Source: Selaginella moellendorffii (taxonomy: Eukaryota; Plantae; Lycopodiophyta). Taken from it: DNA of 64,000 nt. Location of the stretch: positions 1,416,330 through 1,480,329 of the forward strand of contig NW_003314283.1 in the NCBI RefSeq assembly GCF_000143415.4. The letters are read 5' to 3'. The notes below the pieces were generated by a model. That model did no database searches. It was not told the DNA's origin and saw only the letters and a list, made by a program, of their open reading frames with translations. This document shows positions 1 through 59,406 of the stretch, one piece after another. The position numbers and the translations under genes were made by a program. Position 1 is the first letter of the stretch. Every line of letters starts with the position of its first letter.

Positions 1-1133
1 CCGAGGTCGAGTCCGAAGTTGAGTCCGAGTTCGAGACCGAGTTCGAGACCGAGTCCGAGGTCGAGTCCGAAGTCGAGTCCGAGTTCAAGACTGAGTTCGA
101 GACCGAGTCCGAAGTCGAGTCCGAGTTCAAGACTGAGTTCGAGACCGAGTCCGAAGTCGAGTCCGAGTTCAAGACTGAGTTCGAGACCGAGTCCGAAGTC
201 GAGTCCGAGTTCAAGATTGAGTTCGAGACCGAGTCCGAAGTCGAGTCCGAGATCAGGTCCGAGATCATGTCCGAGATCAAGTCCGAGACCGAATCCAAAG
301 TCGGGTCCGAGATCGAGTCTGAGACCGAGTCCAAGTACTAATACAAGTCAAAGGGTGAAAACCCAAAGTGTGTGTCTCCGGGGGGGGGGGGGGGAGGGCT
401 GGAGGGGGTTCCAAAAGTATAGTAGGGATAGTGAGGTCCAAGAACCAGTCTTGAAGGAACTCTCCAGTGGTACTTCCAAACTGACTTGAGGTTGAGACTG
501 GGGCCGAGGGGCTTTAGGTGGGAGTGAGCATAGACTTGGGTGGTGCCGGAGGGGCCACCCCAGAAAGTGCTCAAGAGCAGCTCCCACTCCCGAAAGGGAA
601 ACCGACTACAATGCTCCCAGCTCATGTGGAATGGTGCCCCATTTGAGTACCTTGTGGCTCATCAGTCCTTGCCCTTCCTAAAGGCTTGGGCCTTCCCTTC
701 GGGATGGAGGTGGGGGGGTAGAAGTACCCATACCGAGCTGTTAAGCCACGGTGTTTCGCCCCGGCGTCCCGAAGCAAGTGTTGCACCCAAGACTTGGGAT
801 TTAGAGGGTCCTATGATCAAGTCTTGTGGTACCAAGGGATGTTAAGAACCTAGAGGTTTGGTGTGCTTGGCTGCTTGTGCCTGCGGGGAGTGTAGCCGAA
901 CCTTAAGTCCAATCTAACCCGGGGAGGGGGATTGGGAGAGATTTGGGAATCTATGGATGGATGACTAACATTCCGTTGTTTGTGCAGTGAGTAGTTGAAA
1001 CCAAGTAGGACCAAGTAGGAGCTAGTACCATAGGTGGGAACCTTGGTGAGGGAACTTAGCAAAAGCTAGGGTAGTGTTGGACGGATAGACGAGGTAAGCT
1101 GGCAAATTGGAAAGGAAAAATTTTTGGCTTACA
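1..1133 (+). repeat. 5' LTR of outer Gypsy element (start lies outside the window)
   Basis: Colinear with 24600-25660. Ends in CA just before the PBS. Contains a GAGTCCGA-type tandem array at 1-335. Confidence 0.92.
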
Positions 1134-1136
1134 ATT

Positions 1137-1148
1137 TGGTATCAGAGC
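1137..1148 (+). promoter_or_regulatory. Primer-binding site (initiator tRNA-Met)
   Basis: TGGTATCAGAGC, 3 nt after the LTR end. Confidence 0.95.
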
Positions 1149-4100
1149 CTTTTCCTCAGTTCTAGCGAAGGATAGAGGCAGATTGCTGAGAGATGGCAAA
1201 GGCAGGGTGCAAACGAACCAAGGCAAAGATAAAACTTCCGCTAGAGCTGGAGCCTCTGGTTGAACAAGAGGCTATGGATGAGGAATCCTTGCATGAGGAG
1301 GACTCCAGTGAGGAAACTTCCAAACAGGAGTCTGGTGGCAAGGTTTGGTCGTCCAAGTCTCGATTGGACGTTTTAAAAGGACAATTGGCACAGACCAATG
1401 CCTTGTTGGAGACTCTCGTATGCAAGCTAAAGCGTGACGAGAAGCGGAAAAAAAAGCGAAAGACTGCGGATGCTAGCAGCGCAGAAGGTGCGGACCCTTT
1501 GGTAGAGATTGAGGCAGAACCAAACAAGGTCGAACAAATCGAAGTGGAATCAGTCCCTCAGGCAGTTCCCAAGTACAAACCAAAGCCCCCACTGGTCTTC
1601 AAGGGAGTGAACGACTATAAAGTGGTGGAGGATTGGTTTTACGATATGGAGGATTACTTTCGAGCGTTGCAGTTACCGAGGTCCCATGTGCAAAACCATA
1701 CTTGGCAGATAATGCCAAGTCTTGGTGGAGAACGATAGAGGCCAACAAAAGACCAGTGGCCACTTGGGAAATGATGAAGGTGAGGATCTGCACGACATAC
1801 GTTCCTCCGAATGCTACTCTGCATCTAAGAGATGAGCTGAGTAGGCTGAAGCAGACCGGAACCATTCAGGAGTATGTGAATGGGTTTATAGCAAAGAGGA
1901 TACTTATCACGGACATGGGGGATATGGTTGCGTTCCATGCCTTCATATCTGGCTTGCAAACCTAGGTTCGCGATGAGGTGATGCGTTGGAACTCGACCAA
2001 TTACAAAGAAGCGTTGGATGTGGCTATTAAGGTGCATTTCAATGATAACCTGCGAAAGGGGAACATGATGGGGTTGGGGTCCACATTTAGCAAGGGGGCC
2101 AAACCAAGGGGAATATATAGCAAAGGGAAATTCAAGAAGAATTTCTTTAAGAATGAGTCCTCGGGGTTCCGGAAAGGCAGATCCGGTGGCCAGCGATTGA
2201 GTACGTGGGGGAGTCAAGCAAAAAGAGACAAACCCATAGATAAGAAGGGCAAGTCGGTTAGCAGCATGGGAAACAACGTATGCTACAACTGCGGTGAAGT
2301 GAGACACTTCTCGAGGGAATGTCCCTACCTGAAAAAGGCCAGAGCCAATATGGCCATTAAGTCGGGTGAAATCCAAACTGAGGTGTGTGATCTAGTCCCT
2401 AGCTCAAAGTTACTCATTACGCAAGCAACTTTGGTAGAGAGTCATTCACGATATCTACTAGCCTTCCGAGGGAAGCTTGAAGGTAGCTTTGTTAAGATCC
2501 TTATTAACACGGGTGTTTCAGATAATTTTGTGGCTGCAAACATAATCTGGCAAGCCGGACTAACGGTGCAGCGGCTGGGCGAACCAAAGACTATAGAGTT
2601 TATTCAAGGCAGCCAAAGCACTGATGAGGTACTTTGATAAACGAAAGTCGAAGTAGGGACATGGAAAGTAGACATGGATTTCACCATGTTGGACATGGCA
2701 GGATTTGACGTAATCTTCGGGATGGATTTGTTCAATCGGTTTGTGGTAGCCCTGCATGGACAAGGTAGGAACCTTGTGGTACTAGCGAATGCCCAAGGAA
2801 GAAGATCTAGAGTGGAGGCCCAAAATCTAAAAGTAGGGCAATACAAGGCCAAAGATTCCTGCCTAAACCTGGTGTCCACGAGAGGATAACTCACTAAAGG
2901 AACCAAGGTAACATTTTTGTGTTTACTTTTGGTGAAGAGTGACAAAAAGATGGGAATGGAAGAAGTACTTTTAGTGATCCAGCGGGTGTTAGACCAATTC
3001 TAGGATACCATGCCAGAGGAGCTACCGGTGGGGTTGCCCCCTACACGACCGATAGAATATAAAATTGAGCTGGTCAAAGGTGCTAAGGCGGTAGTTCACC
3101 CCCGCTATCATTTGAATGAAAAGGAACTCGAGGAGCTTAAGTGCCAACTAGAGGAGTTGGTGGACAAAGGGTATGTTAGGTTGAGCAAGTCGCCATATGG
3201 GGCACCGGTGTTATTTGTGAAAAAGAAAGATGGATCTATGCACATGTGTATAGACTACCGGTTGCTCAACAAGTATACAAAGAAGAACAAGTACCCTTTG
3301 CCAAGGATTGAGGACCTATTCGATAGGTTGGGAAAGGCAAAATACTTCTCGAGGATTGACCTAAGGTCAAGATACTACCAGATCGGGGTAGCATAGGAAG
3401 ATGTCAAGAAGACAACCTGTCAAACAAAGTATGGGAGCTTTGAGTTTCTGGTGATGCCTTTTGGGCTATGCAATGCGCCGGCAACGTTTTTGGCGTTGAT
3501 GAACCACATCTTTGTACCCTATCTGGATCACTTTGTGGTCATCTATATTGACGACATCCTGATCTATAATGAAACGCTAGAGGAGCATGCCGAACACTTC
3601 ACGAAGGTGTTTGAGAAACTAAGGGAGCACCAGCTATATGCTAAAGAGAGCAAATGTGACTTTGCTCAACAAGAGGTAAAGTTTCTCGGGCATGTGGTGA
3701 GCAAGGATGGGCTCAAAGTGGACCCTGAGAAGGTCCAAGTGATCCAGGATTGGGAGCGACCATCAAATGTACGCGAGTTAAGGGCATTCTTGGGGCTATG
3801 CAACTACTACCGAAAGTTTATCAGACACTATTCGAGAGTAACCCTGCCTTTAATGGACCAAACGGGAAAAGGGAAGATGGTATGGACAGCAAAATGCGAG
3901 ACAACATTTGCCCACCTCAAAGGGAAATTGAGGAAGACTCCCGTGTTGGCATTACTAAACTTTGGTAAGGACTTTGAGGTAGAAACGGATGCTTTAGACT
4001 TTGCGTTGGGCACAGTTTTGAAGCAAGACAACCATCCAGTAGCATTCTTCTCGAACAAGTTGGACAAGGCTCAAAGGAAGTGGTCTGCCCATGAGAAAGA

Positions 4101-5058
4101 ATTATTTGCGGTGGTTAAGGCGCTCAAGGAGTGGTGACACTACCTTGGGAGACACTTCAAGGTTTACACGAACAATGTGGCAACGAAACACTTCTTGTCA
4201 CAGCCTGACCTGAGAGGGAAACAAAGTCGGTGGGCCAATGCTTTGGCCGAGTTTGATTGCGAGATTCTGTACAAGTCTAGGAAGAGCAACATCCTGGCAG
4301 ATGTGCTAAGTAAAAAAGCGAGCTTGAAGTTGGCAATATCTAGTGCGACAGTAACCTTTTGGGATGATGTGCGGACAGCATATGAGAACGATGGTCTAGC
4401 ACAAAAAGTGTTGCTAAGGAATCTAGAGGCACGGGAAGCTCACCAAAGAGGTGAGCTACCAACGGAAGAGAAAACGGGTTATGTGAAACACAATGGACTC
4501 ATTTATTACAAGCAAACGAGGGTGTATGTTCCAAAAAGGGAATTAAGGAAGGTAGCCTTAGAAGAGTGTCATGGCGGACCTCTTGTGGGACACAGCAGAG
4601 TGCCCAAGAGATGATGGGCTTACTCAAGAGGAAGTACCACTGGCCAAATATGGCTAAAGACGTCCAAGACTATGTAAAGACATGTCCAACATGTCAGCAG
4701 ATCAAAGCGGTGACTAAGGCTAGTGAGGGCTTGTTACAAAGCATCCCAATTCCAGATCATCCGTGGAAATGTCTTACGATGGACTTCATCATGGGACTCC
4801 CCCCAAGCAAGGGGTTCGATGCGATATTTGTGGTGGTGGATCGATTTTCGAAGATGGCACATTTCATACCCACCATAACGGAAGTGGATGCGGAAGGTGT
4901 GGCCAAGTTGTTCTTCGAACAAGTGGTTCGAGTGCGGAGAAGGCCAGAGGAGATTATCTCAGATCGAGATAAGATCTTCACCAGCAGGTTCTGGAAAACT
5001 CTCCTGGAACAGTATTGCACCAAATTGAAATTCAGCACAACCTATCACCCACAAACAG

Positions 5059-5105
5059 GTATTGGGTATTAAGTCAAGTTTGATAGCACTAACACTTCTT
5101 GACAG
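5059..5105 (+). other. Putative 47-nt spliceosomal intron in the integrase core
   Basis: GTATTG...CTAAC...TTGACAG. Removal restores YHPQT-D-GQTERVN. Confidence 0.8.
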
Positions 5106-5523
5106 ATGGACAAACAGAAAGGGTGAATAGGCAGCTGAAGGATTATTTGCGATGTTATGTCTCAGGAGACCAGACCGATTGGGTAAATCATTTGGGACTT
5201 TCGGAAATGTGCTATAACAACTCACCACATTCGAGTATCAGGGTGAGTCCATGGGAAGTCATCAATGGGCGAGCTATTGAAGGTCCTGTGGAACTCGGCG
5301 TGGCCGAGTATCATGGAGAGCTACCCGCAATGGAGGCTTCCATGACGGAAAGATTCAACATTTGGAATCTAGTGAGGGATTCCTTAAAATGGGCTCAACA
5401 AAGGCAAACCAAGTATGCGAACCAGAAGCGCCGGGATGTAGAGTTCCAAGCCGGGGAGAAGGTGTGGCTAAACACCAAGAACCTCAGGCTACCAAGTGGG
5501 ATCAGCCGGAAGTTGACCTAAAG

Positions 5524-5575
5524 GTAAAAATGCATGTATTCTTGTAAATGAATTGATCTTGACTTCCTTGAGCAG
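5524..5575 (+). other. Putative 52-nt spliceosomal intron in the integrase C-terminal region
   Basis: GTAAAA...TTGAC...GAGCAG. Removal restores RKLT*RFTRPYEIEARIGKVAYRLRLP..MHPVFHV (GPY/F module). Confidence 0.75.
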
Positions 5576-6753
5576 GTTCACGAGGCCTTACGAGATTGAG
5601 GCACGAATCGGTAAAGTGGCTTACCGTCTCCGACTTCCTCGAGAGATGGGGAAAATGCACCCAGTTGTAAGCGATTAAATTTTCCATTCTACTTTAGTCA
5701 CTTAACCACACCTCCAACCACTTAGAGGAGTCTCACTCACAACCTCCATAAGTCCTATTTTAGACTTGGGCTTGCTAGCCCTGAGAATGGCATCCCCGCC
5801 ACTCAACCTTTGCACTTGATCCAAGTGCTCCACGTGTCCGATCCCATGACCGACACCCCAAGGTACCACCAACATATCAGGCCGTTACGCTAAGGCCATG
5901 CCCCTTTACCTTGGTCACACCGGTGGTCTAACACCACCTGCATCACAGTCCCATCTCTCAAGGACTGGGCCATCCGTCCATGAGTGATCATTCCAGATCC
6001 ACTCCTTTGCATCCTTAGGATGCCCACAGACATGGGGAATAGCCTTCCCCAATATCCCTTTTCCGGTCTTCACCAAGTCCCTTTCTGCCCATGGCCGTGC
6101 TCGCCAACACTGCCACTGGATCGAGGCCCACAGGCCTGACCACTAAGTCCCACGGTCCTCTGGGACTCTCTCACCACTCGACTGTATCCTTAGTCACTAC
6201 ACCAGAGGACTATTCCTCTTCCTTTCTATAGTCTAGGCCTTTGGGACAACATTTCGGAACACCGTGGCCCTACGCGGGCCTCATGGAAGCTTTATTTCGT
6301 TAAAGTGGGAATTTTCATTATCCCACTTGTAAAATAAGGTTTCCAAACCTTTATATAGTATATAAATATAACAAAATTCAACTGCATTGAGGCACATGCC
6401 ATTTTATTTTAAACAAGGAAATGTCTACTCAATCACTTCTCCTCCCCCTGCCACTGCTTCACCTCTCTCTTTTCCTTGTCATCGTCGTCCAATTTCTTTC
6501 CATCCTTTTAATATTGGCTCAGTTGCTTCGAGTCTAGGTGGAGCCCAAGTCCCCATTCAATCTTTACTTTCCCCTTATTAATAAAACAACTTCGTAGACT
6601 TCCAATAACATGCTGTAACACGCTGTAACACTTCTAGTATAATGCAAATCCTCTCAAAGAATTGTCTTTTAATATTAATACAATGGCATGGAACCCCATG
6701 CCATAATAAGTTACATTTTTAAATAAATACATGCCATCTCAGACTGTTATTTT

Positions 6754-7623
6754 TTACCTCCAACGCCTATACAATAATCTTGGAATTTCATCACTCTCCA
6801 CACTATCAGGATTTAAACCCAATAGTAATGCCATCTCTTCTCTAATACGTCCACGCTCATGTTCAGTGGTCGAAGAACCCATCCGGTTGAGCAAATTATG
6901 GAGATGCGGATAGTGCTTGGCTAGACAATATACATGCCATAAATGATGACTGGTGTCTGTCCGATCAAATGGCTTCTGATATACCGTTCCATCTGCCATT
7001 TGGTTGATTTCTACAACCACCTCCTGGACTGGCCGGTTCTCTATCACCATCGCTCCAAGCCGTTTTGCAAGGTCCCCCAGAACATACGGTTTCTTCTCCC
7101 TAGTTTCCATACTGCAAGAGATGGGGTGTACTGAATATGTGTGTGTGTTCGCTGCAGTTTTAATCGGCGAGTCATCGATGATGAGGATTTCACTTGACCT
7201 AGCAGTCCGGTTCATCACTACAGCCTCTGGCTTGACGAAGATGGGCTTGCTACCCCTCACATGGACCATAGTCAAGCAATCCTCCTGCGTTAGGAGAAAG
7301 TCAAATGGTAATATTACTCGTGTCTGATCGTGCATCATCTGTAGCAACGTTAATGTATTGTGGCGCATCATGGATGTCCAAACTCCCAATTGCAAATTGA
7401 ACCCGGCCCTCTGTTTTAAGTGTCGCATGGTCATTATTAGATCCCGCAATTTCTCCCGTGTGATTAATGTGAATCTGTCTCTTTTGACCAACTTGCGACC
7501 GCAGGCTTTGGAGGGTGCAGTGACATTCGAGGACGAGCCACGCTCATGGGAGAAAAGGACACCGTTCAGATCAAAAACGATACAGTACCTTCGCCGTGAC
7601 TCTGAAATGAAATACGTCAGCAT
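6754..7623 (-). CDS. FCP1/NIF-like HAD-superfamily phosphatase domain (transposon cargo; probably the last exon of a larger gene)
   Basis: IVFDLNGVLF (motif I variant), LGVWTSMM (motif II), LTQEDC, PIFVKP, LIIDDSPIKTAAN (motif IV). Confidence 0.75.
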   Translation of the reverse strand: MLTYFISESRRRYCIVFDLNGVLFSHERGSSSNVTAPSKACGRKLVKRDRFTLITREKLRDLIMTMRHLKQRAGFNLQLGVWTSMMRHNTLTLLQMMHDQTRVILPFDFLLTQEDCLTMVHVRGSKPIFVKPEAVVMNRTARSSEILIIDDSPIKTAANTHTYSVHPISCSMETREKKPYVLGDLAKRLGAMVIENRPVQEVVVEINQMADGTVYQKPFDRTDTSHHLWHVYCLAKHYPHLHNLLNRMGSSTTEHERGRIREEMALLLGLNPDSVESDEIPRLLYRRWR

Positions 7624-7646
7624 AAAAAATGGTACAAGTCAATTTT

Positions 7647-10213
7647 ACCATCTACAATATTAGCGAATGGTGCTCCCGATGGTCGTTGAGAGGGTTTTGG
7701 TCGAGGAAACGTGAAGGGCGGAAATACTCTCCTCTGCAATGTGGGGTCAATCGCATCCGATGGCGTGTGGGCACATGCCATTTCAGCTGTAGACTCTGGT
7801 ACAACTGGCTCAACAGTGGCATGGGGTGGTTCCGATGGCATGTGATCACACGCCATTTCAGCTGGTGCCTCCGTTGGCAAAGTGGACATGACCGAACAGG
7901 CAGCAAGGGCGGTGTAGGGAGGTTCCAACGGCGCGTAGTCAGACGATTGGGCACACGTTGAGTCCGTTGGAAATGAGGATACGACCGGCTTGGCGGCTGG
8001 GGCGGCCTCATGCGGGTCCAATGGCGCCTGGTCACCATCAGTTGGATACGTGGACAAGATTGACTCAGTGGTATGGGCAGCATCAAGTGGAGCGTGGTCA
8101 GCTTGCTTGGCGTTGATATGGATAGTAGCCTCCACCAGCTCTGATGACTCTTGCAGGCAAGTAGAGTCCACTGGCGGATCCATATGCATGTCCAAATATC
8201 TCCCTTCGATTGAGATGGTATCCTCCCGTGCTACTAAAAACAAACTCATTAGCACATTGAATCGACTATACTGTATTTACCATCAACTGCTATTGAGGAA
8301 CTAGGACCGATATCACTTGGGCGCACTGCTGATTCTGAAGGATTGGATATACGTTTCGACCCTTACTTGGCACTATCCTTCCTCGACACTAAAGGCTAGA
8401 GTTTGTATCTTAATTCAACTGAATAATCTCTACTTACCATTTGCTCTGCGACCTACATGGACAATGTTAGAAATGGTAAAAGGTTAGGAATGGATGTACT
8501 ATTATTTACCTGATGGTTTGTTTTTTATGACCTTCCTCCGCTGCTCTTTGGCCACCTTAGGCTGGCCATCGTCGTCATCATCGTCGTTGTCGTTATTGTG
8601 ATCGTTACCATTGTGAGGACCATCCAAGTCCTCTTCGTCCTCCTCTTCTTTGTCCTCCTCTTCATCCTTCTGCTCTTCCTGCTCATTATCTTTCTCTGGC
8701 TCCTCATCCCCCTCCTGCATTTCTTCCATAGGCTGCTCAGGCTGGATGGCTTGTTCTTCCAGGACCATCTTGGGAAAATCATCTGGCCGAGTCTCCATCT
8801 CAAAATACAAGACATCCATAGCCTGTTTTAGTGCGTGACCTAGGACCGTATCCTCACCCGACTGTCTTAACATGGTTTCTGCACGTTCTTGCACCCTTCG
8901 AAGACGACGAGATGAGAAAAACATGGCCCTGACTTGAAAAGCATCCCTCATCCATTGTACCTCTCCATTGAGATTGGGGAAGGGGAGTCCGCCATAGGAA
9001 TTTGAGTCAGGAGGTGGTGATTGGCTGCTTTCACTCAGCCCTTGATCTGCAATGAATGGCATGAGCACACACGCCATAACCGCGAGGCATTACCTATCAT
9101 CTTTTCGTTGCCCTTCTTCCTTTTCGAATCAAACGCCTTTGATCCCAACGACTGTCCAACGTGTTTTCGCTTTTTATGACCACTGTCAGTTTGAGCTTGA
9201 TCTGCAAGAAATGGCATGAGGACCCACACAATAACCATGACGCTTTACTTCCCGTCCTTGGAGGCTCTGTCGTGCCTTCCGCATCCTCAGGTGCCTGCTC
9301 CTCAATTCCCTTTCGCTTTCGTTTCTTATGCGCCCGTTCTATAGAAATAGCATGAGGACATACGCGATAAGCACACAAATGCTTTTACCCTTCCTCCTCT
9401 GCCCTGGTCGGTTGTCCATCTTTTTGTCTACAGCGTCTGAAAGTTGTTTTGCAGGTAGCCTAATTCGAGGTTCACGACGTCTCCTTGGCACTTGAATTGT
9501 ATATTATTGCATCAACACATGCAACATCCCATAATATTTTTAAGTTACCTTTCATAAAGTTTTACATTGGTTCAACTCGTTCCCCTGAAATACAAACTTA
9601 GATAAGTGCATGGGGCCATATGTCATGATCGTACCTGTTTCGGAACTCTCCTTATCACTCTCCGAGGCCTCCCCCTCCTCCACTGGAGGCACGTTGTTTC
9701 GTTCGATTTCCTCGACGTGATCTGCAAGAACATTAGTTAATTGCGTGGGGCCACACGCCATCAAACCTTCAGGTTCTTGTCATGAGGTCTGCGCTACTTG
9801 CCCTAGTCTCTTTGGAATTTGAGCTGCAAGAAGCAATGGCATGAGAATTCACGTATAACAAAAATGATTGGTACCTCTCGTCCGTTGTACTTGGCTGGTG
9901 CTTGCCTGTTTTGCCTTTGAAGAAGTGTCTCCTGCAAGGAATGGCATGAGACCACACGCCATTGCAAATATAATTTGTACCTCCTTTTTTTTTATTGCTT
10001 GTCTGTTTGTCCTTCTTCAACGCGCCACCAGTGCGCTTTTCAGTCCTTGTGTCTGAATATTCACAACGATCTATAATCAAAATGGCGTGAGGCCTCACGT
10101 GACCTTACGTTGTGCAGGTTGTGAGCTCGGCCCAACAGTAGCTGTTAACGCCGTTTCAGCATCTGGGGGTGGCCACGCTCCTGCATACAGAGCTTGTGAG
10201 ATAACATTTAAAC
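7647..10213 (-). CDS. Series of short low-complexity exons (acidic, Lys-rich, Pro-rich) linking the cargo domains
   Basis: Repeated ~47-56-nt GT..AG introns on the minus strand, e.g. 9047-9093 and 9932-9980. Acidic ORF at 8502-9077 and Pro/Ala-rich ORF at 7617-8255. Exact exon chain not resolved. Confidence 0.5.
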
Positions 10214-12804
10214 TTAAAGTGCGTACTCACCAGGTTCGCAGAGAAGATACTGTTTTTCTTTGGCAACTGTAATTATATGCTTCATTGAAGTCACCTCTTC
10301 AATGGAATTTGTCACCGCAACACACGGGACACCCTTGAGTAGTGTGGCTCGAAAGAATAGTCCGCCGCAGTTGTACTCGACAACGCATTTGCCCTTGGAG
10401 TCGGAAGCAGGTGACCCACCCGCTATTGCATTGAAGACCCAGCTGAGCATTTCCCATGCTGCACCTGGAGCTTTCTCTGGATTCGAAAGCTCCATAGCCG
10501 TCTTCAGTTCCTCAGGCACGGGTAAATTGACCTCCCTCAGATCAATTCGATCGGCCTTGTCGAACGAAGCTGGGAAGTCACTCCAGTCCCACTCTGCTGC
10601 AGGACCAATAACAAGGGCGAGTGTGAAGATGCAGACATTCGTCGGTATCTTCTTCTTAGCCATTATCCCATGGATCTCCCGCATCTCCTTGCCTTTCAAC
10701 GGAGCCTTCACCTCGTTCAAGGCCTTCCAGAACTTGTGATAGGATTCGGAGTCGTAGATCATATAGTGGACTGAAGATTCCACCTCCGCAAGTCCCACCA
10801 TTAAGTCAATGATGGAGCTGACTTCGTCTGCATGAGTGATCTCCTCGTTTGTGAAGTCCATCACACAAAAGATGTTCTTGACCTGCTCATCTCCGCGGGA
10901 AACGATGCTCCTCCACCTTTGATCCTCATCCGAATTCATGTATACCCGGTAAGGTTCTCGATAGGCCTCTGCTGCAGGGTTGAGCTGTTTCTGAAGCCGG
11001 CGGTCGACATCCCTCTTAATGAAATTTGGATACTGAACTTCTCAGCTTTACTTTTCGTGGCATCCCGCAGCAGATCGATGAACTTGGGGGCCCCCTTAAC
11101 GTACTTGTCGATATCTTCATTTGACAACTCCAGCTCTTCCATCATCTCTTGCGTGGTGTCGATGCTCACCCTCTCCACGGCCACTTGCTCGAAGATCCAA
11201 TCCTTCAATAGCGCACGAGCTCTCAGAGTCGTGCACAAGTCCTCATATGTCACAATATGGCCGGGAGTCATTTTGGTCTTGTTGAAGACTACCTCACCAC
11301 GTAGAAGAGCATTAGTCACTGTCAGAAGGTCGTCGTTGTCTAGAGACCGCGAGAAACGCAAGGTGTCGAGCTTCAAATCATTGGGCTTCCGGCCATCCTC
11401 CACACCCATTGAGTTTAGCAACTCCCCGTCATGGTACCTCCTCAGGACATCTACCCATTTGTCAAAAACAACTTTTGTCGCGAGTAGAATGTTATGGATG
11501 CTGAGTGTGTCATTGACCCCCAGTGTTTTCGAGAGAAGACTCGAGAATTCCTGCAATGGAAATGGCGTGAGGCCACATGCTATGCCACATGCAACGAGGC
11601 TTACCTGCCAGGCGCTAGTTGCTAGTGCACGTCCTTGTCCTGGTTTTTGTGGCTTCTTCAGTTGAACCCAGAGCTTCCGTGTTCGTGCCAATGTCTCGTG
11701 CAGACTCGATTTGTAACACGTTTCTTGCTTAACATTCTGCGCGTGGGAGATGTATATGATAGATCGGAGGGGTGAGTTGCCTTTTATCAGGCGGACAACT
11801 CTTGTCTTGAAGACTTTCTTCACCTCCTCGCCCACCATAATATCCACAACTATCTCTTGCATCGCCAAGCTAGAATGCTGCCCGGAGACGGCATAGAACC
11901 GGATGTTCTAATCGTCCAACACCTTCCTATTGATCAAGTCTGGAAACCTCGTCTCACCCTTCATTGTTCGGTAGTAGGGGATCACGTCTGCGATGTCGGG
12001 TGTTACTGGACTTGCCAGCATCTTCTGCTTCAGTTTCTCCACCCACTCATCAGATAGTAGCCTGTGGTTGTATTTGCTTTGGATGTCAATGTGGCTCACG
12101 TCAATTGTATATACTTTGTTGGAATAGTAACAAGTACTATTATTTGCGACGATTTTTGCTGCCTCTTCTTGCTCTTTCTGCTCTTTGCGGCTCTTCTTTT
12201 TGGTGGGTGTAGTGTTCGAACCCGAGGCAATGGCATCACCGAGTAGCTTCTTTTTTGGAGCAGGAGAGTCGGACGTCGGCTTGAGCTTGACCACCCTTTT
12301 CTGCTTCGGGGTAGTTTCCAGATCGACCCCCTTCCCCTTCGCTTCGCGAACTGGAGTCACTCTCAACGGCTCAATGTTGGAATATAGTTTTTGAACATCG
12401 CCGTAGGTGAGGTCCGTGGATTCCATGTGATCTTCATAGACCCGCAGCGTCTTTGAAATTGTGGGCCTCCTGGACAACCTCTCCCTAGCTCCCTCTAGGA
12501 ATTCCTCATAGCCGCTACCCCCCTCCGGGAAGCCGCTAGGATGTGCAAGGTGGATCTTGAAGGCGGACGCTGTCTCTACCACAAGTGCCAGTCCATATTC
12601 TTGCATGGAACTGCATGGAGTGTCTGTCACTTGGATGAGGATCCCCATGCATTCTTTTCTCCCACCATCTGTGTTGTACAGCCTCAGATCCTCGCCTTCC
12701 ATCCCGAAAGTCCAACTGATGAGCTCCTCCCCCTTCTCTGCATCCACATTGACAGTGGCTGGAAGAAGAACGCAATTCCTCGCCTGTTCAGAAATGCACA
12801 ACAA
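10214..12804 (-). pseudogene. Large cargo gene with ParB/Srx-like domain and a degenerate C-terminal N4/N6-DNA-methyltransferase-like region
   Basis: ORFs 11908-12804 and 10936-11868 are in one frame separated by a single TAG; read-through gives IDVSHIDIQSKYNHRLLSDEWVEKLK...FYAVSGQHSSLAMQEI. In-frame 54-nt intron at 11551-11604. A frameshift near 11030 joins ORF 10214-10939 (PEKAPGAAWEML...KCVVEYNCGGLFFRATLLKGVPCVAV). Domain calls are motif-level only. Confidence 0.55.
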
Positions 12805-15089
12805 TTAGAGTTGACAGATGAAAAGCTAGCAGCTGGAAATAACGTGAGGCTACACGCCATTCACCACTGCATCAGATGTCTTGAGGCTGCATCCTAAGAT
12901 GACGTGAGGCTACACGCCATCTGTAACCGGACTGCACTCGAGAGCCCAATTGGTGCATGCCAATGTTGCTACTGAATGGCATGTAGCCTCATGCCATTTT
13001 CTACTTGGCCTAAAAGACTTACCATTTGAAGCCGAATGGAGGCGTGACAATCGAGGCCGAACTCGCTGGCAAATGTGCACTGTGTGTGCAGCAGATCGTA
13101 GCAGCAAGGCTACTCTGCCACTTACAGTTGGAGAGTGGCGCTGAAATCTCCCGGGACGCCAAGTGGGTTGCGTGTGGGTGGTGGAGTGGGCGGCGGAGTT
13201 GGCGGCGAAGTTATAAATTGGGTGTGTCTTGAAGTGGACGCCGATGCACACGAGCGCGATGCGAGCGCGAGTGTGATGCAAGCGCGAGTGGACGCCGATG
13301 CACACGAGAAACCTGTAGAGAAGGTAGATGAGCGCGAATGTGAGCGTGATCGCGAGTGGGAGCGCGATGCGAGCGCGAGTACGAAGCAAAATGCAAAACC
13401 TAACCTCACACGCGCGAAATGTCACGACGGTTGGTAATCCCGCAACGTCATCATTCCTCGGACTTGGGCGCCACCATTAATTTTTGGATCGCCGCGCGCA
13501 TGCATGCACGTGAAATCCAAAAGAAATCCGCAACGTCATCATTCCTCGGACTGCATACACGCGAAATCCAAAAGAAAGATGATGATTGGGATATCATTTA
13601 ATACCCTCGCTATATTTATACCATGCATGATTGGATATTCCAAAGCATCTTGTATTTCCAAAAATGCCAGATGTTCAGCTAAATAAAGAATGGTATACAA
13701 TGTCCTTCTTGATGACCCTGCAAAGAAGCATCTCGATCGGACACCACATGAGACCACACGAGCCTTATAATGTTTCAAGGGCATTTGCCATAGATCCGAC
13801 CGTTATTTTGCTCCAAGATTCTACAGTTTGGTGTGCATTGACCTTTCCATCGACACTGCAAAGGGACATCACAATCAGATGCGGGATCACAAGAAACCAA
13901 CTTCACTAACTCTGGTTTCACCAAGATCTACGTAAGGAGTTATGAAATGAAAGGACCCTCTCTATTGAAATGTGTTTATGGTCCTAGGGGCATTGTGACA
14001 TATCAAAGGATTTTGCATCAAGTTCTGTATTTGCATGTTTATCAAGCTACTAAATTGCTAAACCCTATACCCTCCCTAAATATGTGGCAAATGCTGCGTG
14101 AAGAAAGATGCCCTTTCTGGGCAAATGCTGTAAGAGGCAGATGCCGAGCAGATGTATCTCAGGCTAGCGAAGGGGACAAACGAAAGCTAACTATAAACAT
14201 GACGGGATGCAAATAGATTACTAGGCTAGTCTTGCGAAAATCAAAAACCATAATTGAAAACATTGAAAATGCAATAAAAAAGGTTTATAATATTTTTGAA
14301 TTTTAAACAACCAAAGGAATGTAAGTAGGGCATGTGTTTGTAAGTTTAAAAATGCCTCAACCACTTAAATTCCCAAGTAAATAAAGTTGTTTCTATTTTT
14401 GGTACAGGTAAACTTTATAGCGTGTGGGCTCATGCAATTTTGAACCCAAAAATGCACCAAAAAATGCTCGACTAGCATTATTCTTTGAATGGCGTGTGGC
14501 CTTATATTGCCATAAATGGACGTACACACAGCATAATTATTCCTTTACACGGCGAATAATCTTGGCACGGATCGCTGACATGACATAGCAAAGTTCGAAT
14601 CACTGACATGGCACAGCTAGATCGAGGCAAGGACATGATGTGACAAAGTTCAACGTCCGACAGCAAAGTCTAGAAGCTACTCAGTTTGAAATTTGTCAGA
14701 GGAATTATAAGATCTAGTTTGTCAGAGGATTTGATGTGACGTTCAAGCGTGTGTTATTTTTGAATTCTCGAACTCATTCCTAGGTCTATCATTTTTGTGC
14801 GCCGTGTTCTTGGTTCCGCTGAGCGCAGTGAGCGCTGCTTGTGTAAGCGGCGTTGTGAGCTGTGGTTTATGCGTCTACGAGCGGTTGCGGCATTGCGAGC
14901 GCCATTGCGAGCGGCAGTTTATGCGAGTGGCAGTTTGTGCGAGCGGCGCTATGAGCAGTTGCGGTGGTGCGAGCGGCGCTACGGTACCACTAATGGTATG
15001 AGGGCTCATGCCATCTTGGGGATTGCAAGTTCATCACTAGCATATTGCCAATAGTTTCTTTACCTGCCTGTAGCTGTGTGTTTATCAAG

Positions 15090-15281
15090 ATGGCATGAGG
15101 CCTTATGCCATCTTTGGCCCCTGCTAGCCTATTGCCATATTCCTTTTGCCTTGCTGCAACTGTATATATTTTTGTATGGGTGACTAGTCACGCACACAAA
15201 AATATATACAATTGCAGCAAGGCAAAAGGAATATAGCAACAGGCTAGCAGGGGCCAAAGATAGCGTGAGGCCTCATGCCAT
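15090..15281. repeat. ~190-bp near-perfect inverted repeat (hairpin)
   Basis: Arms ATGGCATGAGGCC..CTTTGGCCCCTGCTAGCCT..TTCCTTTTGCCTTGCTGCAA..TATATATTTTTGT are mirrored around GTGACTAGTCAC (15180-15191). Confidence 0.92.
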
Positions 15282-15469
15282 TAATGGTACCACTAATGGC
15301 ATGAGGGCTCATGCCAATTTTGTGAATGCGAAATTTCACATGGGTGTCAATAGCATGTTTGAATAATGGCATGTGGCCTCATGCTATTGAGGTTGTTTGG
15401 TATGTTATGATTTAGGCCATTCTCTAATCATTTTTTGTATGGTCTTAACTTCTTTTCTGCACTTTCAGA

Positions 15470-16461
15470 ATGGCCTCCGCAAGTGCGACGCATGTTCCCT
15501 CCGTGGATCTTAAGAACCGTGCTACATGGATTCAGGCAAAGGTGTTTCTAAACAACCCCGAGGGGGAGGTGGTAGCTGAGGGCTTAGCCACAGTTGTCGA
15601 TCCAAGAGATGCGGTTGCTAATCAAGAATTGGGCTGGGATGATATTGGAGTTGCGATTTTAGAGGTTGTTGACACAGAAGAAAACAGTTTGACTATTGGA
15701 AGCATTGTGCGGTGGAAATTGAGGCACTTAGTGTTTGAGAATGTGAAGGATTCACAATCAAACACCACTACAACTGATGACAGAACATCTCTTCATGGGA
15801 AAAGAAAGTACACCTTCCTAAAGCGCAGCCAAAGGGATCTGAGCAACGAACCGAAAAGGCAGAAAATGGCGATGGAGGTTCGAATGGTCTCGACAGTTGC
15901 TTGTTGCAAAAGGAGGTGCTGTCAACATGCTGATTGGGATGCTATTGAATCAAAACTGAGTTTGAGGAACAAAGGGTTCAACAGGCAGCCCATGGGAACG
16001 ACGGTACTCACAAAACCAGGGGTCATGTTGTATATGGAGAGGCAATCTTCAAGAGGTTTGTCGAGACATGTAGCGAGCAGCAACCACATAAAACCCGCCT
16101 CTTGGAAGATGGAACTCGAGACACCCAACGAGTTCTCCCTTCCATGTATACCAAGGGGGCCATATTGGAAGATGTGAATCGGGAACTCCAGAGTAATGGC
16201 TACAGGAAGCTGAGCCAATCTAGATTTAGTAGATTGTGGAGCAACAGGTTCAGGGATGTGAGTATAGGAAAGTACTCCAGCTTTTCAAAGTGTGACGAGT
16301 GCACTGCTATCAAAATGGCTTTGTCGAAGAATTCTTGCATCGCTCAAGAGCGAGAGACGTTGGTTAGAAGGTGGCTCGACCACAACATCGAGCAGAGAAG
16401 CTGCAGGACTGCATATTATCATAACTCTTCTTTAGCTTCAGATTCGGCTTGTTCACCTTGA
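15470..16461 (+). pseudogene. Truncated, frameshifted transposase N-terminus (Sola-like Cys motifs; N-terminal Tnp1/En/Spm-like domain)
   Basis: VVAEG...DP...LG...IGVAI...IGSIVRW, then CCKRRCC, then FSRLWSNRFRDVSIGKYSSFSKCDEC. Ends ~165 bp before the right TIR with no catalytic acidic triad. ATG is preceded by acceptor TTTCAG. Confidence 0.65.
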
Positions 16462-19400
16462 CAATGAGATTTATTATACAACCAGATGGACTCAGTCTGG
16501 ACACAAAGTCACCGCGCTAGTCACCATGCCCCAGATATGTCTAGCCCCTGGACAAAAAACATATAATTTCACGTCATTTTCAAATACTTGAAAATTTGTA
16601 CCTAGTCCCATTTTACTGAATAAATCCCACTTTAACGAAATAGAGCTTATGGGTACTTTCCCCGCCTTCCGCCTTTGGGTGCTCTAGCCATGGGCTTAGA
16701 GCGAGGTTCCATTGAGCCACACCAGGTATCCAAGTAGGTAGTGCCACCCACACTTGGACTGGGAGCATTGGTCAGTCGATCTCCACGGGGGAACTAGAGC
16801 CGACTCTTGACACTTCACCAAGCTACCCCGCTTGTTGTCCGAATCCCCCTTAGTTTGGGACTCCCCGGGGGCCAGTCCCCCCCCCCCCCCTGGGTAGGCC
16901 CTCCCGGGGCCAAAAGGCCCTTTCCGGGCCAAATGGGCTCCAGGGGGTTCCAACCCCCCCCATTTCCCCTAAAAAATTTTGGGAACCCCCGGGAGCCCCC
17001 CCCCCCCCCCCCCCCTTGGGGGACGATCGCTTTGGGCTTTCACCCAACTGCCTGTATTAGTATTCGGACTCGGACTCGGGCTCGAACTCGGACTCGGACT
17101 CGGTCTCGGTCCCAGTTTCGGACTCGAACTCGATCTCGGTCTCGGTCTTGGCCTCAGTCTCGGTTTCGGTCTCGGTTCCATCTCAGACTCCATCTCGGAC
17201 TCCATCTCGGGTCCATCTCGGGTCCATCTCGGACTCCATCTCGGACTCCATCTCGAGTCCATCTCGGGTCCATCTCGGACTCCATTTCGAGTCCATCTAG
17301 GGTCCATCTCAGACTCCATCTCGGGTCCATCTCGGACTCCATCTCGGGTCCATATTGGACTCCATCTCGGACTCCATCTCGGACTCCATCTCGGGTCCAT
17401 CTCGAGTCCCATCTCGGACACTTCCACGTGTCATGTGTTTGGTCCTTTTGGGTCCCTTTTTGGAGCCTTGCTTATTGCTCACTTCGTGCTCGTTCCTCGA
17501 GCACTTTGTTAGGAGTTCCACTCCCACTCTCGACCTTTTCAAGTCGGAGCTTTTTAGTCCAAACGTGTTACGTTCGTTTGGTTTTCGCTTCGGCCTCCAC
17601 CACATGGCACCCTTCTGGCTCCACTTTGGGGCCTAGGGATTTTGTGTCTCACAACTCCACCACCCATAGACGAAGTTCGATGTCCTCATTGAACGGTAAA
17701 CCCTCTTATAAAGTAACATCCGCATGTATTACCAGTTCCATCCTTGGCACTCAGCCAATATTTGTCTATGGTTTGACACCAAAGGCTCACCATGCCTTGT
17801 CCATCCTCTAAGGAGCAGAGTCTCTCCAACATAGAGACTCATTCGGCCACCTGAGGTGGTTTGCTCCCTTTTATTGGTTCAGTTCTCGCTAAACCCTTTA
17901 GAGACATCGTCTCTAACTCAATTCCACTACTCATTCTCGAGTAGTCTCAGATTCTATCGACATAACCTTTGCACTTTGGAACGTTTACTTTTGACTTCTT
18001 GAAGTCAATTTCCTAGGTGTCTCCGACAGCTTCCATTGCACATATTGTGCAAGTCCACTTCCCTATCCTAGGAAGTTCTCTACTTGAGGGCACCATCATC
18101 CTCTTTTCTATTTTGTGCCACCCTTGGCACTACGTTCCAATTATCATCATTTGTGCCAGAGCTGTCCACAGCCCTATCTTTTGGCTACTTTGCCGCTCCT
18201 CACTTGGAGCTTTTACTTTGCCAAATTGGAGCACTTGGGAATCTAACCTTGGAAGTCCACTTACTTTCCCACAATCCATTAGTATTAAACACATTAGTGT
18301 TCTTTGGCTAACTTTGCCATTTGGATTCCTCCCATTAAATTCTATGGCCCAAACTTGGCCACTAGTCTTTTGCTCCTATCCATTAATTGTTGCATCAAGC
18401 AACAAAGGATCACTACCTCCTTCCTTGAGGTATTCTTTTGGTTTCATGGCAAAGCTCCACTTTGCCAAGTCCAGAGGGTGCTCACCCCTAGTAGGTCTCT
18501 TTAGCAACTTCTGCTATGGGCCCCTTCCACGGCCCAACATTGTGACCCTCTCATAGGTCCTTTCTAGAGACTACTATCTTGAACTCACAATACCATTGTA
18601 TCATCGTAGATCTAGGTGTCCTTCCCACTTGGTCACCTTGACCAAGCCACACCATTATCAATAGTTCAAACCAACGCTTTGAACTAGGAACCTTGTTCCT
18701 TAACCTCAAAAGGACCTCATCCTTGTTTAGCCATACGATCACCTAGTGATCTAATCTTGACACCTTAACAGGTTTGCCAATAGGTACTAGGTCTCCCAGA
18801 CCTTTAACTTGTTGACTATGACCTCGGGGGCATCCCCCACACTTGGCGGTGTGCCCAAGCTAGCCCTTCCGGCCAAGGGTCCATAGCAACTGAGACTGGG
18901 TGTCCCCATCTCATTCACCACGTCCTTGGTGCCTGGCGGTGTGCCCAAGCCAGTCTCCTCACTGAGAGTCCATGACCACCGAAATATGAGTGTCCTCATA
19001 TTCCAAACCATCACCACGCCCTAGTGATTTGGGACTCGAACCCAAGCACTAGAGGGTCGGGACTCGAACCCAACCTCCGTATATGCATCTACGGATGGCA
19101 TCACACCGGATGCCTGGCATGACTCCCCACGCCGGTGCACCAACTTATATTTAAAGCGCGTTACAGATCACAGCTTAGGAACCTAATTCCTCTACACTGC
19201 CAAGTCCTCTCACTTGACATGTTTTGTGATCATGCATAGACTCTTCCATGCTCGGCCCCCTGGGCCACCCCTTTGAAGTTGGCTCCTTCAACTAGGGTAT
19301 TCGTTCCCCCCGACTTGCCAATCTCACTTAGCAAGTCATTTGGCCATCGTAACATGGTTCATGCATAAGTGTGAAAGTCCTTAACCATCGACTTTCGTTT

Positions 19401-21245
19401 AAAGCCCTCTCTTTGAACACTCGGGAACTACTTCCCCAATCTTGATAGCCTTGCCTCATGGCCAGCTTCAAGACCACACTTCTGCTATGCCACTCTAATT
19501 TTGCGCATCCTATGAACCATTTACACTTGGCTAGTTAGGTACTTATCTACCTAGGGGAATGTTCAAGGAACTCTATTCCTTGGCTTGCTAAAGTCTCTCC
19601 TTTCGCAAGCTTTCCAATTACCATATAATCTAACATGGACAATTCCATGTTTTAGACTCTCCATGGCATCCCGGTCGCTAGTAACAACATGTTTGAGCAC
19701 CCACTTGATTTTCCACTCCCAACTTGCATAACCACCCTTGGTCATGCTTATCAATTCCTATGGTTTGGTTTTATCTCTATACTACTTGCCTTTTGGCCTC
19801 ATACATTTCCTTTGGTTATTCTCCTCCAGACTAGGAGGATAGCTTTGCACATTTTACCATGCCTTAGCAAGTATTCTTAGGGATGAACCTACCTGATAGC
19901 CTAGGGAGTGGTTCTTCAATCTTGGGCATGCTCACCTTATAATCCCACACATCGGGATTAATATTGTTGCTTATGGGCCTTTATATGCCCATCACTAGCC
20001 TTGCCAAAATTCCATTTTTGACTTTATCCAATTCGGGTAAACAATCTTTTCCTGTCTCCACAACCTTGGACATTTGGATAGCACCTACTATCCATCATTC
20101 ACTAGGGACTTAGTCCCTTGGGCCTTATCTATTGCTCTTGCGACACGAAACACCACCTCTTGGTGTTCTAGAATGTTTGGGTGTCCCAATTATGGCTTCC
20201 TGACAATGAGCATTCTCGTTTACAACATTGACTTACTATATCGCAACATAAGCAATTTATCCCCTGTAAAGGTATATCTAACTTCCTTATGCTATTAAGA
20301 AGTTTTGGGTAGCTACTTTTTACCCATTTAACCAATTATCTTGCACGTCTTGCTTAGTTGCCCCATAGTTGTCAAGTTCTACAACTCATTGCTTGGTGCT
20401 TCCACACCTCCATCATTGTTTTCGTCACCACACTCTACCACATGCCTTCCAGCTTTAGGCTATGCCATTCCCATTTCCGTTGGGATTCCCTTTGGCAAGG
20501 GGTTCTTATAAACCCATTAACATAACCTCAAGGTATCACACTTTGGCACATTTGGTGTCTCCACACCATTGGCCCCACAAGCCTATCCTTATGACACTAC
20601 TTATTAATGTCTAGGTCTTTGCCAAGACCAATATAGTTGTTCCCCATGCTAACTATCCGTTAGCACCCCACCATAGTGTTTGCACCCAACTCTAGGCCAA
20701 AGTTGCTTTCTTCTGGGAACATTTTTCCCACAACTTTAGTATGACACATTCTGCCATCAATGAGATACCTACTATTCTCATACTTGGATCTTATGATCCT
20801 CCCCATACCTCATGGGGCACCATACACCTCAGTCCAAATGCTCCAACCAATCCCTTAGGACCATTCCCTGACTCCGCTTGAGTCATCCAGCATTTTGGAC
20901 TTTGCTAATCCAACAACCTGCAAGGTCTCAGTCTTAGAGGTGCCAACTCACTGGAATACAACTTCTTGTATTCATGTCCTACTCACAAGGACAATCTTTG
21001 CAAGTGTTACTCTGACACTTGAGTATTTTCTTGGGGCTAACCTTTGCCCCTTAGGACTACTTGTCCATGTAATGAGAATAGCAACTCATCTTTAAGTACA
21101 CCCCCAACTCCTTGGGTTGTTCCAACATTTATTAGAGGTAGCCTCGGCTACCATTTCAAGGACTGGTGTCCTCTTCTGTATTTGACCTCTCACGGTCAAC
21201 AATTATAGTCTCAAATTTATGAGTACTAACCTCAACTATATAAGG

Positions 21246-23830: not shown

Positions 23831-23835
23831 CCAGT

Positions 23836-24095
23836 GTTCCACGTGAACTTACTCAAGCCGTACTTTGAGGATCCGCTTCGCAAGGACCAAAAGACTCTTA
23901 CCTGAGGTTATCCAAGGGGAAGAGGAATACGAAGTCGAGGCCATCCTCAATGCGTGCAAGAGCAAGCGATAAGGACGCGAGGTGAGAAAGTTCCATGTGA
24001 AGTGGAAAGGATTTCCACATTGCGAGGCAACATGGGAACCAAAGGAGAACCTAGCGAACACGCGAGATCTAGTGGAGGAATTTCTACAAGGCAAA
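23836..24095 (+). pseudogene. Integrase C-terminus and chromodomain of the outer Gypsy element
   Basis: VFHVNLLKPY, then EEEYEVEAIL...FHVKWKGFPHCEATWEPKENL. Continues the frame broken at 5665. Confidence 0.9.
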
Positions 24096-59398: not shown

Positions 59399-59406
59399 TA
59401 TAAAAG
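59399..59406 (+). promoter_or_regulatory. TATA box of the isocyanide-synthase-like gene (second copy at ~51583)
   Basis: TATAAAAG ~100 bp upstream of the ATG. Confidence 0.65.

Follow-up and report, generated by a model that had tools for sequence, protein, structure and literature searches.

A palindromic 22-mer in short predicted introns of a transposon cargo gene of Selaginella moellendorffii, a candidate protein-binding site

The locus studied here raises the question of why one palindromic word should stand once in each of several short predicted introns of a single gene. It lies in a stretch of 64,000 nucleotides of the Selaginella moellendorffii genome (the window), and the word is the palindromic 22-mer ATGGCRTGWGGCCWCAYGCCAT. 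The gene is the cargo of a Sola-like DNA transposon, a decayed copy of 10,362 bp that sits within an LTR-like repeat and shows the following parts:

6287 to 16648: Sola-like DNA transposon
6287 to 6310, plus strand: left terminal inverted repeat (TIR), 24 bp, 23/24 identical to the right TIR
16625 to 16648, minus strand: right TIR, 23/24 match to the left TIR
6283 to 6286, plus strand: 4-bp target site duplication (TSD) ATGG, second copy at 16649 to 16652, single ATGG at the empty site
15470 to 16461, plus strand: transposase gene remnant, DUF7869/Sola-like, with internal deletion and truncation, 95% to P0001
6754 to 12783, minus strand: predicted cargo gene, 16 exons, 15 introns, 1,756 codons, start provisional

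The empty site is located at 22787-22850 of the window, and empty-site joints are also seen in contigs. The transposase gene, longer in other family copies, is of the DUF7869 type, which we take to be the Sola type. Among the transposase relatives scanned, 13 of 18 show a DUF7869 match (11 above the cut-off); DUF7869 of the relatives contains HDKMDQ, DN..K.NKN and GHTHED blocks, and the window copy stops before them. Sola ends are GRG/GAG, from which the AAG..CTT of this element differs. These ends and the TSD ATGG also differ from the AWWT target described for Sola, a comparison of one insertion (n = 1), and the subgroup (Sola1, 2 or 3) was left unassigned because of this single insertion. 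A 4-bp TSD is a feature of Sola2 (PMC3627910), and the element has both a 4-bp TSD and TIRs. The TIR pattern gave 0 matches against metagenome contigs, and the available text of the GingerRoot paper (PMC6839031) and of PMC5751038 offers no specific parallel.

The window contains 23 palindrome sites with a score of at least 15, against 0.0 in 20 shuffles; at a score of at least 12, 23 sites are inside the element and one is in the 39 kb of 25001-64000. Nine copies are intronic, two are exonic and 12 are beyond the predicted coding span, which are distributed as follows:

6381 to 6704, no strand: two palindromes (6381, 6683) from the left end to the cargo stop, by motif scan
7760 to 7856, minus strand: two exonic palindromes (7760, 7835), in frame, in a 75-nt duplication, read AEMACxHxPS
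12839 to 12997, no strand: three palindromes (12839, 12899, 12976) on the 5' side of the cargo coding span, perhaps within a first intron
14417 to 15387, no strand: seven palindromes that precede the transposase, including a 192-bp perfect-spacer hairpin at 15090-15281

A donor-like site is located 25 nt upstream of palindrome 12976. Rfam gave sub-threshold matches only, 10 of miRNA type and all within the hairpin region 14987-15315.

The nine intronic copies are in minus-strand GT..AG segments of 45-56 nt between 9047 and 11604, with exactly one 22-mer in each. These segments and the other predicted introns are, all on the minus strand:

11551 to 11604: 54 nt, phase 0, near-perfect palindrome at 11562-11583
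10053 to 10108: 56 nt, phase 1, palindrome at 10082-10103, weakest sites
9932 to 9980: 49 nt, phase 1, palindrome at 9941-9962
9824 to 9874: 51 nt, phase 1, palindrome at 9836-9857, left arm weak
9722 to 9766: 45 nt, phase 1, palindrome at 9740-9761, separate CTAAT downstream
9585 to 9634: 50 nt, phase 1, palindrome at 9605-9626, separate CTAAG downstream
9339 to 9388: 50 nt, phase 1, palindrome at 9347-9368
9202 to 9248: 47 nt, phase 1, palindrome at 9211-9232
9047 to 9093: 47 nt, phase 1, palindrome at 9056-9077
9491 to 9548: 58 nt, phase 1, degenerate palindrome at about 9505-9526, predicted from frame and below the strong-site threshold
10181 to 10230, 8453 to 8509, 8389 to 8437, 8231 to 8280 and 7602 to 7648: five phase-1 predicted introns without palindrome

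An in-frame AG at 10071 would shorten intron 10053-10108 to 38 nt. An earlier note on this DNA had named eight palindrome introns; all are present (10053-10108 was given as about 10052-10107), and a ninth, 9585-9634, had been overlooked. Its observation is partly confirmed: one 22-mer per intron holds for nine of the 15 predicted introns, five having no copy and one a degenerate copy. The introns are short, as the term micro-introns implied, but ordinary for the host, in which all seven introns of one gene measure 51-70 nt. The spacing, put there at about 100-200 bp, is irregular: the palindromes are 96-258 bp apart within the cluster and the next follows after 1,480 bp. That the sites spare coding sequence is true of 21 of the 23, which are not in predicted exons, and untrue of the two in frame at 7760 and 7835.

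Each of the nine segments is bounded by a strong GT and a strong AG signal, and the frame closes across all of them. The minus-strand acceptor score is at least 3.8 in 9/9, a level of 3-4 being reached by 4-6% of 2,930 control positions, and a site choice blind to frame returns all nine. All six exons with a palindrome intron immediately on either side have a length that is a multiple of three (chance 1 in 729), and 14 of the 15 predicted introns are phase 1, including all eight palindrome introns of the cluster. With GT..AG consensus context, host-typical length and frame closure, as in U2 introns, the predicted introns are very probably spliced.

The cargo gene is on the strand opposite the transposase, within the TIRs, and its window copy is broken by stops at 11910, 9782, 9564 and 8365 and a frameshift near 11035. 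Three regions were distinguished in its product:

11605 to 12140, minus strand: predicted ParB/DUF3723-like region (..AVSGQHS..), ESM Atlas
10231 to 10950, minus strand: predicted methyltransferase-like region without DPPY-type motif, ESM Atlas
6757 to 7601, minus strand: NIF/FCP1-like phosphatase domain in the last exon, Pfam PF03031, 24 bits (cut-off 21.8)

The first two labels are predictions from ESM Atlas features. The top match of the first region is DUF3723 at 0.93, with 173/256 features and recognition below threshold, and its ..AVSGQHS.. motif is presumably ParB-like. The second matches an automatically named trimethylguanosine-synthase-like cluster at 0.93 and, at 0.87, a cluster in which 39% of the members have PF01555; DPPY, NPPY and SPPY catalytic motifs are absent from the translation of ORF 10214-11041. 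In Pfam, NCBIfam, PHROGs, PADLOC and PDB sequences the ParB-like region has no match and the methyltransferase-like region nothing credible, NIF being the only Pfam match of the gene. Cargo homologs were found neither in three homolog searches of up to 5.8 billion proteins nor, by tblastn and phmmer, in 34 related loci, though several of these bear palindrome arrays. Single-sequence folds of the two parts were unusable (pLDDT 39.5 and 32.7), and the fold search returned noise.

We give about an even chance to the reading that the 22-mer is a site in double-stranded DNA on which one of the element's own proteins lands, most likely the predicted ParB-like cargo product, and that the introns hold such sites without change to the protein. 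A dimeric protein would read the two 8-bp arms, and the cargo product, as reader, might mark or shield its own copies against silencing, as has been proposed for the algal relatives and demonstrated for VANC. Shielding by occupancy or spreading would be likelier than methylation, because the methyltransferase-like part has no DPPY-type motif. This reading, which partly supports the interpretation in the earlier note, fits the retention of the motif over its flanks, the absence of an RNA hairpin, the copies outside introns and the arrays of the relatives. Mean identity among the nine introns is 0.71 in the motif, inflated because the copies were chosen by motif, against 0.27 in the 5' flanks and 0.48 on the 3' side, so that the rest of the intron is dissimilar, as had been stated, on its 5' side and less so on its 3' side. 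An RNA-hairpin role was rejected: no steady hairpin is formed, and z is below -1.7 in just 3/9 introns. Each intronic site is dispensable, because five of the nine are missing from most of the family copies sampled.

A gene of this design has been described in Ectocarpus, and the logic in VANC/VANDAL; the new, branch-point-like feature is CTCAY in the 3' arm of the palindrome in 7/9 introns. Sola1-1_Ec32 of Ectocarpus carries an opposite-strand accessory gene, ParB-like plus N4C/N6A methyltransferase, proposed to bind and modify its own sequence (PMC12477816). The present element is likewise of Sola type with an accessory gene opposite the transposase and inside the TIRs, but it is from a land plant, measures 10.4 kb, has 1,756 codons and an added FCP1-like domain, has apparently lost the methyltransferase motifs and shows sites one per intron, while the word 'palindrom' does not occur in the available text of PMC12477816. 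VANDAL introns contain motifs to which VANC21 binds (PMC5735166); the VANDAL21 motif is 9 bp, non-palindromic and in tandem arrays, binding was found by ChIP and EMSA, and VANC exon-intron structure is shaped by tandem repeats (PMC5735166, PMC10398659). Both systems show an encoded accessory protein and a family-specific motif in non-coding DNA, be it intronic, intergenic or terminal; here 21/23 sites are outside predicted exons. VANDAL21 is Mutator-like, whereas the transposase here is of DUF7869 type, and no relation to VANC is seen among the Pfam matches. Plavaka PAG3 of Bostrychia combines a ParB-like accessory gene with inverted-repeat arrays, for which self-binding is proposed (10.1101/2025.02.11.637652); according to the available text, its repeats are tandem and adjoin the gene, the transposase is another and the partner is a 2OG-oxygenase. 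As in ParB-parS, a palindromic site accompanies a predicted ParB-like protein; unlike the bacterial system, ParA is absent, the site is 22 instead of 16 bp and the ParB fold is a prediction. The proposal made in the algal papers is that a ParB-like accessory protein binds and shields the transposon encoding it; their available text names no intragenic site. The element supplies a sharp 22-bp candidate site in 23 copies, which makes the ParB self-binding idea testable by one binding assay; this value is tempered by the window copy being dead and by splicing and binding being predictions from sequence.

It is also possible, though on the unlikely side, that the transposase and not the cargo product reads the palindrome, the copies being dispersed subterminal-type repeats for synapsis or self-activation and the introns no more than the cargo gene's non-coding space. 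Seven palindromes cluster ahead of the transposase start, and transposases are described as sequence-specific activators (10.64898/2026.08.24.746577). The refined array scan covered 16 of the 34 related loci: seven show 10-18 palindrome copies against 0-6 in shuffles, and in the other nine the array is weak or not clearly above shuffles. The arrays of the relatives consist of family-specific words at a spacing of about 140 bp, similar to the element. Locus L004 has a GGCC-bearing palindrome of its own in 12 copies, of which 11 stand about 140 bp apart upstream of an intact transposase, which is its sole ORF above 100 aa. Six loci (L011, L018, L020, L022, L030 and L033) carry the word TGGTGGCCACCA upstream and downstream of the transposase gene and also within a 250-300-nt intron-like gap of it. 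A cargo match is absent from these relative loci, a search of low power because the cargo has no homolog even among 5.8 billion proteins. Against a transposase reader, the L004 sequence stops 525 bp past its array, and a search for left ends and TIRs in the related loci found none, although a conserved segment, now decayed, is present upstream in them, so that these loci need not be cargo-free. The palindrome is also unlike the TIR and shows no concentration at the element ends, and the published pairing of ParB with repeats crosses transposase types (10.1101/2025.02.11.637652).

Quite unlikely is the explanation that no protein reads the intronic copies, which would derive from a tandem-copied palindrome intron-exon unit and persist in introns only because the 3' arm is the branch point. 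The exon-intron unit duplication considered in the earlier note draws on the shared phase 1 of the eight cluster introns and on 77 nt around two palindrome introns that are 73% identical, exon flanks included; the exons are otherwise unrelated, in 35/36 pairs on each side, and the phase-0 intron 1.5 kb away has a near-perfect palindrome. TTGCAG ends six of the nine introns, and 4/21 pairs of 5' parts resemble each other at p<0.02. A common ancestry of the shared intron start GTAAGCCTCG was rejected, as a host intron has an identical beginning. Under the binding-site reading, the run of phase-1 exons was probably extended by the copying of intron-exon units, whose exons drifted afterwards. The loss of five sites from most copies favours the absence of a reader, and the 14 further copies outside the nine introns speak against it. 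As for the branch point, the 3' arm matches the consensus at 7.6/8 and the 5' arm at 6.4/8, but the 5' arm, which has no splicing role, still stands at 80% of consensus with neighbouring bases at chance.

The 3' arm reads CTCAY in the sense direction in 7/9 introns and in the antisense direction in 2/9. An adenine is at -15 to -19 in six palindrome introns, and host branch-like adenines are at -14 to -22 in 5/7 introns. Two introns have CCCAY with a longer spacer and their own CTAA[TG]; the association of CTCAY with the spacer is not significant (Fisher p 0.083), and YTNAY is also read in 14/30 orientations of non-intron copies. In most introns the 3' arm would likely double as branch point, a role that would explain the distance of 8-12 nt from the AG and the better-kept 3' arm. 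We tentatively propose, as an unlikely extension, a dual code in which a self-recognition site in DNA is a branch point in RNA and drives intron gain. A site landing in coding DNA would supply a branch point and a pyrimidine start and be spliced out via nearby GT and AG, so that an intron is gained at that place; if additional landing sites along the element were selected for, this would drive intron gain and the run of symmetric phase-1 micro-exons. If the 3' arm does serve as branch point, a DNA-binding code would be seen to give rise to new introns in this way.

It is improbable that the segments are unspliced, that is, decayed non-coding DNA in which repeats resemble introns by chance. No spliced junction was seen in three raw RNA runs or five contig sets; of the raw runs (X8-X10), 12% of each was read, without a host-gene control and without cover of 9016-12535, with partial matches only at 8629-8669 (low complexity) and 13089-13128. 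The intron cluster is not reached by contig sets X12 and X17, which are presumed to be RNA. X1 contigs, RNA by guess and probably DNA, run unspliced through 7602-7648 and also enter 11551-11604, an X12 contig extends 23 nt into intron 8453-8509, and the 54-nt intron could be coding because it is in frame without a stop. Frame closure and shared phase argue against this explanation, as does a frame-blind scan of 6750-12800, with 13 strong minus-strand candidates of 44-62 nt (eight with palindrome) against one on the plus strand. Family alleles point the same way: in related copies position 8365, within a predicted micro-exon, has a sense codon instead of the stop, four more bases are present at 11035, and 0/55 of the family coding alleles listed create a stop. 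Most sampled family copies also lack one segment:

9196 to 9889, no strand: 694-bp deletion, five palindromes and 393 predicted coding bases lost

The depth of the deletion joint is 93-99, against 5-7 for the undeleted form, and the deletion is in frame only after splicing (393 coding bases).

Introner-like mobile units built on the palindrome, also suggested earlier, are disfavoured as very improbable. In their favour, the same word is found in nine similar-sized introns and 4-5-nt direct repeats at three junctions. Against them, the palindrome lies inside the intron at distances that vary (5-21 nt from GT, 8-29 nt from AG), inverted repeats are missing from the intron ends and the flanks differ; the palindrome is absent from all seven host introns, and one copy is present in 39 kb outside the element. 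Introners are families of whole introns, symmetrical at their ends and scattered among host genes. The symmetrical sister (stw)introns of Hypoxylaceae are short introns sharing an inverted-repeat element (PMC8469720). Unlike both, the introns described here have only the internal 22-mer in common and are inside one transposon gene.

The element carries a 22-bp imperfect palindrome with the consensus ATGGCRTGWGGCCWCAYGCCAT, and a profile scan of the whole window found 23 sites scoring at least 15, compared with 0.0 in 20 shuffles. Twenty-two of these sites, together with one weak copy (9836), are within 6381-15387, and nine copies are inside 9047-11604. The remaining site (62806-62827) is a solitary 22-mer matching 19 of 22 consensus bases, in decayed DNA close to an LTR-like repeat, and no element ends were seen nearby. 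Among the alleles listed, four fall in palindromes (7840, 12851, 12902 and 12985), and at each of them the other copy agrees with the consensus. The transposon housing the palindromes shows these features:

6287-16648: insertion bounded by 24-bp TIRs (identical at 23 of 24 positions) and flanked by the 4-bp duplication ATGG
15470-16461, plus strand: transposase remnant with 74 relatives at E<=0.001

A 4-bp target duplication is described as a Sola2 trait (PMC3627910), and the target repeat without the insertion was found at 22787-22850. DUF7869 is matched by 13 of 18 scanned transposase relatives, 11 of them above the cut-off, and two relatives are named from the liverwort Riccia. The transposase motifs, which we take to be Sola-type, and the 4-bp duplication lead us to read the family as Sola-like. 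Two sequence runs, of unspecified type, yielded contigs over the element with 97-99% identity. Of their 139 and 136 differences from the window copy, about 100 are A>G or T>C, which shows that this copy has decayed by C-to-T change. Loose ends or joints of these family contigs lie at or next to palindromes (10081, 14419, 14499, 14992 and 16425), the sequence past 16425 contains another palindrome copy, and element rearrangements may pass through this word. Family contigs also break at 13089-13128, a 40-nt piece matched by abundant RNA reads which then diverge on both sides; it resembles the 3' part of large-subunit rRNA. Just 5' of the transposase, 15090-15281 is a loopless 192-bp hairpin (96-nt arms, 92% complementary) with a palindrome at each boundary, a possible small-RNA source showing only sub-threshold matches to Rfam.

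The earlier note proposed that each minus-strand micro-intron of the cargo gene houses one palindrome. This feature is real and its description partly right: nine of the 15 predicted introns contain one clear palindrome, one contains a degenerate copy and five have none, while two palindromes are in frame within an exon and 12 are beyond the cargo coding span. The intron coordinates given there are accurate to within one base, and the introns it named in 9047-11604 are recovered as predicted introns, but 9585-9634 was overlooked. Intronic copies are nine of the 11 within-gene palindromes, with 7% of positions expected (p 3e-9), a partly circular statistic, yet eight of the nine introns were detected without using the motif. 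Using general plant splice-site frequencies, the minus-strand acceptor score is at least 3.8 at all nine palindromes of 9047-11604, at none of the other 14 copies and at 4-6% of 2,930 control positions. A scan of 6750-12800 blind to frame and motif shows 13 strong candidates of 44-62 nt on the minus strand, with palindromes in eight, and a single plus-strand candidate.

Joining 12783..6754 through the 15 introns gives 1,756 codons, interrupted by four internal stops and a frameshift. Intron phase is 0 for the first and 1 for the following 14 (p 2e-6 at one third per phase, 5e-4 at one half). This model is independently supported by the lengths of the six exons that have a palindrome intron immediately on either side (72, 57, 57, 87, 90 and 108 nt, from frame-blind sites), by four extra bases at the frameshift in other copies, by their 15-nt in-frame indels at 8631, 10132 and 10402, by a sense codon in them at the micro-exon stop 8365, and by an in-frame skip. 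The skipped segment, 9196-9889, is missing from most sampled copies (joint depth 93-99 vs 5-7, depth being a poor proxy for copy number); this 694-bp, non-GT..AG skip takes out 393 model coding bases and keeps the frame, as chance alone would do one time in three. Of 56 alleles tested among those listed (40 of 76 and 40 of 163 differences), 55 are coding, 21 are synonymous and none creates a stop. Other copies have a sense codon at the position of the terminal stop (6754-6756), so the family protein would be longer by a few codons. The small size of the cargo introns is ordinary, since seven introns of one host gene measure 51-70 nt; none of these has a palindrome.

We favour, at even confidence, the palindromes as landing sites in double-stranded DNA for a protein of the element, likely the ParB-like cargo, with the 3' arm likely doubling as branch point. 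Introns, as free space, would be where the gene retains its landing sites. The number and spacing of the sites are not strict, since five are lost in most sampled copies. Known systems include a ParB-like and methyltransferase gene on the opposite strand of Ectocarpus Sola1-1_Ec32 (PMC12477816), inverted-repeat arrays adjoining a ParB-like gene in Bostrychia Plavaka elements (10.1101/2025.02.11.637652) and VANDAL introns containing motifs bound by VANC21 (PMC5735166, PMC10398659). In the open-access literature, no report was found of a Sola cargo gene whose introns each hold a single palindrome, or of such a site serving as branch point. In the ESM Atlas, 10939-11904 is nearest to DUF3723 (0.93, recognition below threshold) and 10217-11038 to methyltransferase-like clusters (0.93; a PF01555 cluster, 0.87), and no DPPY-type motif was found in the methyltransferase-like ORF. 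Both labels are only leads, because homolog, profile and fold tests of these parts were blank or unusable; the last cargo exon encodes a NIF/FCP1-like domain exceeding the Pfam cut-off.

That the transposase reads the palindromes is unlikely, though the strongest of the other explanations. An alignment of 11 transposases retrieved 34 related loci, 16 of which were scanned with a refined palindrome search. Seven (L004, L011, L012, L018, L022, L030 and L033, the last two near-identical) have their own palindrome in 10-18 copies, compared with 0-6 in three shuffles each. L004 contains 11 palindromes with a median spacing of 140 bp (136 bp in the window intron cluster) ahead of a single long ORF. 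In this array (525-1850) a second short repeated word follows each palindrome, and the 1,070-codon transposase ORF that comes after it is intact; L022 (1997-2929) and L030 (7127-7756) show arrays 5' of the transposase with a period of 46-47 bp. In six loci the word is also within a putative 250-300-nt intron-like gap of the decayed transposase gene. Because relatives carry their own arrays, family-specific palindromes in non-coding space are a trait of the lineage independent of these introns. No cargo was found in the related loci, but their left ends were looked for and not found either.

Tandem copying of units, with the palindrome retained through splicing alone, is rather improbable. Some intron-exon unit copying likely took place, since 4 of 21 pairs of intron 5' parts are alike at p<0.02 (1 of 36 for each exon flank) and one palindrome-intron pair is alike over 77 nt at 73%, exon flanks included; the duplication alternative of the earlier note would hold to that extent, but fails to account for motif retention. 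The motif is better kept than flanking intron bases, with pairwise identity over the nine introns of 0.71, against 0.27 in the 8 nt before and 0.48 in the 5 nt after.

Regarding the branch-point part of the landing-site reading, the 3' arm matches the consensus at 7.6 of 8 positions and the 5' arm at 6.4. CTCAY is present in the 3' arm of seven of the nine introns (antisense, two), and for six introns the adenine of this arm lies 15-19 nt before the intron end. The remaining two introns read CCCAY, and their spacers are longer and include CTAAT or CTAAG. Five of the seven host introns show branch-like adenines at 14-22 nt. CUCAY deviates at the third base from the plant consensus CURAY given in PMC12746065 and is accommodated by the human yUnAy of PMC2367711. 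The link between CTCAY and spacer (p 0.083, YTNAY also being in 14 of 30 orientations of non-intron copies) is suggestive only. RNA folding of the nine introns is not consistently strong (z below -1.7 in three).

That the predicted introns are not spliced is very improbable. Against the gene model, no spliced read was found: a 12% sample of three raw RNA runs, without host-gene control, gave zero cover of 9016-12535. That the introns are introners is the remotest explanation.

Nested Gypsy-like retroelement DNA surrounds the transposon (1-6286 and 16649-25500), with gag, RT and integrase ORFs at 1190-5521 and long LTR-like repeats with tandem arrays of 12 and 23 nt units; one LTR-like copy holds the transposon. 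The region 25000-30000, adjoining an LTR-like end, is highly AT-rich (GC as low as 0.20). A near-identical gene pair is at 51346-52504, which contains an N gap, and 59162-61070; its product, which we take to resemble an isocyanide synthase (PvcA/Dit1 type), is unusual for a land plant, and the pair may reflect a transfer or a duplication in the assembly.
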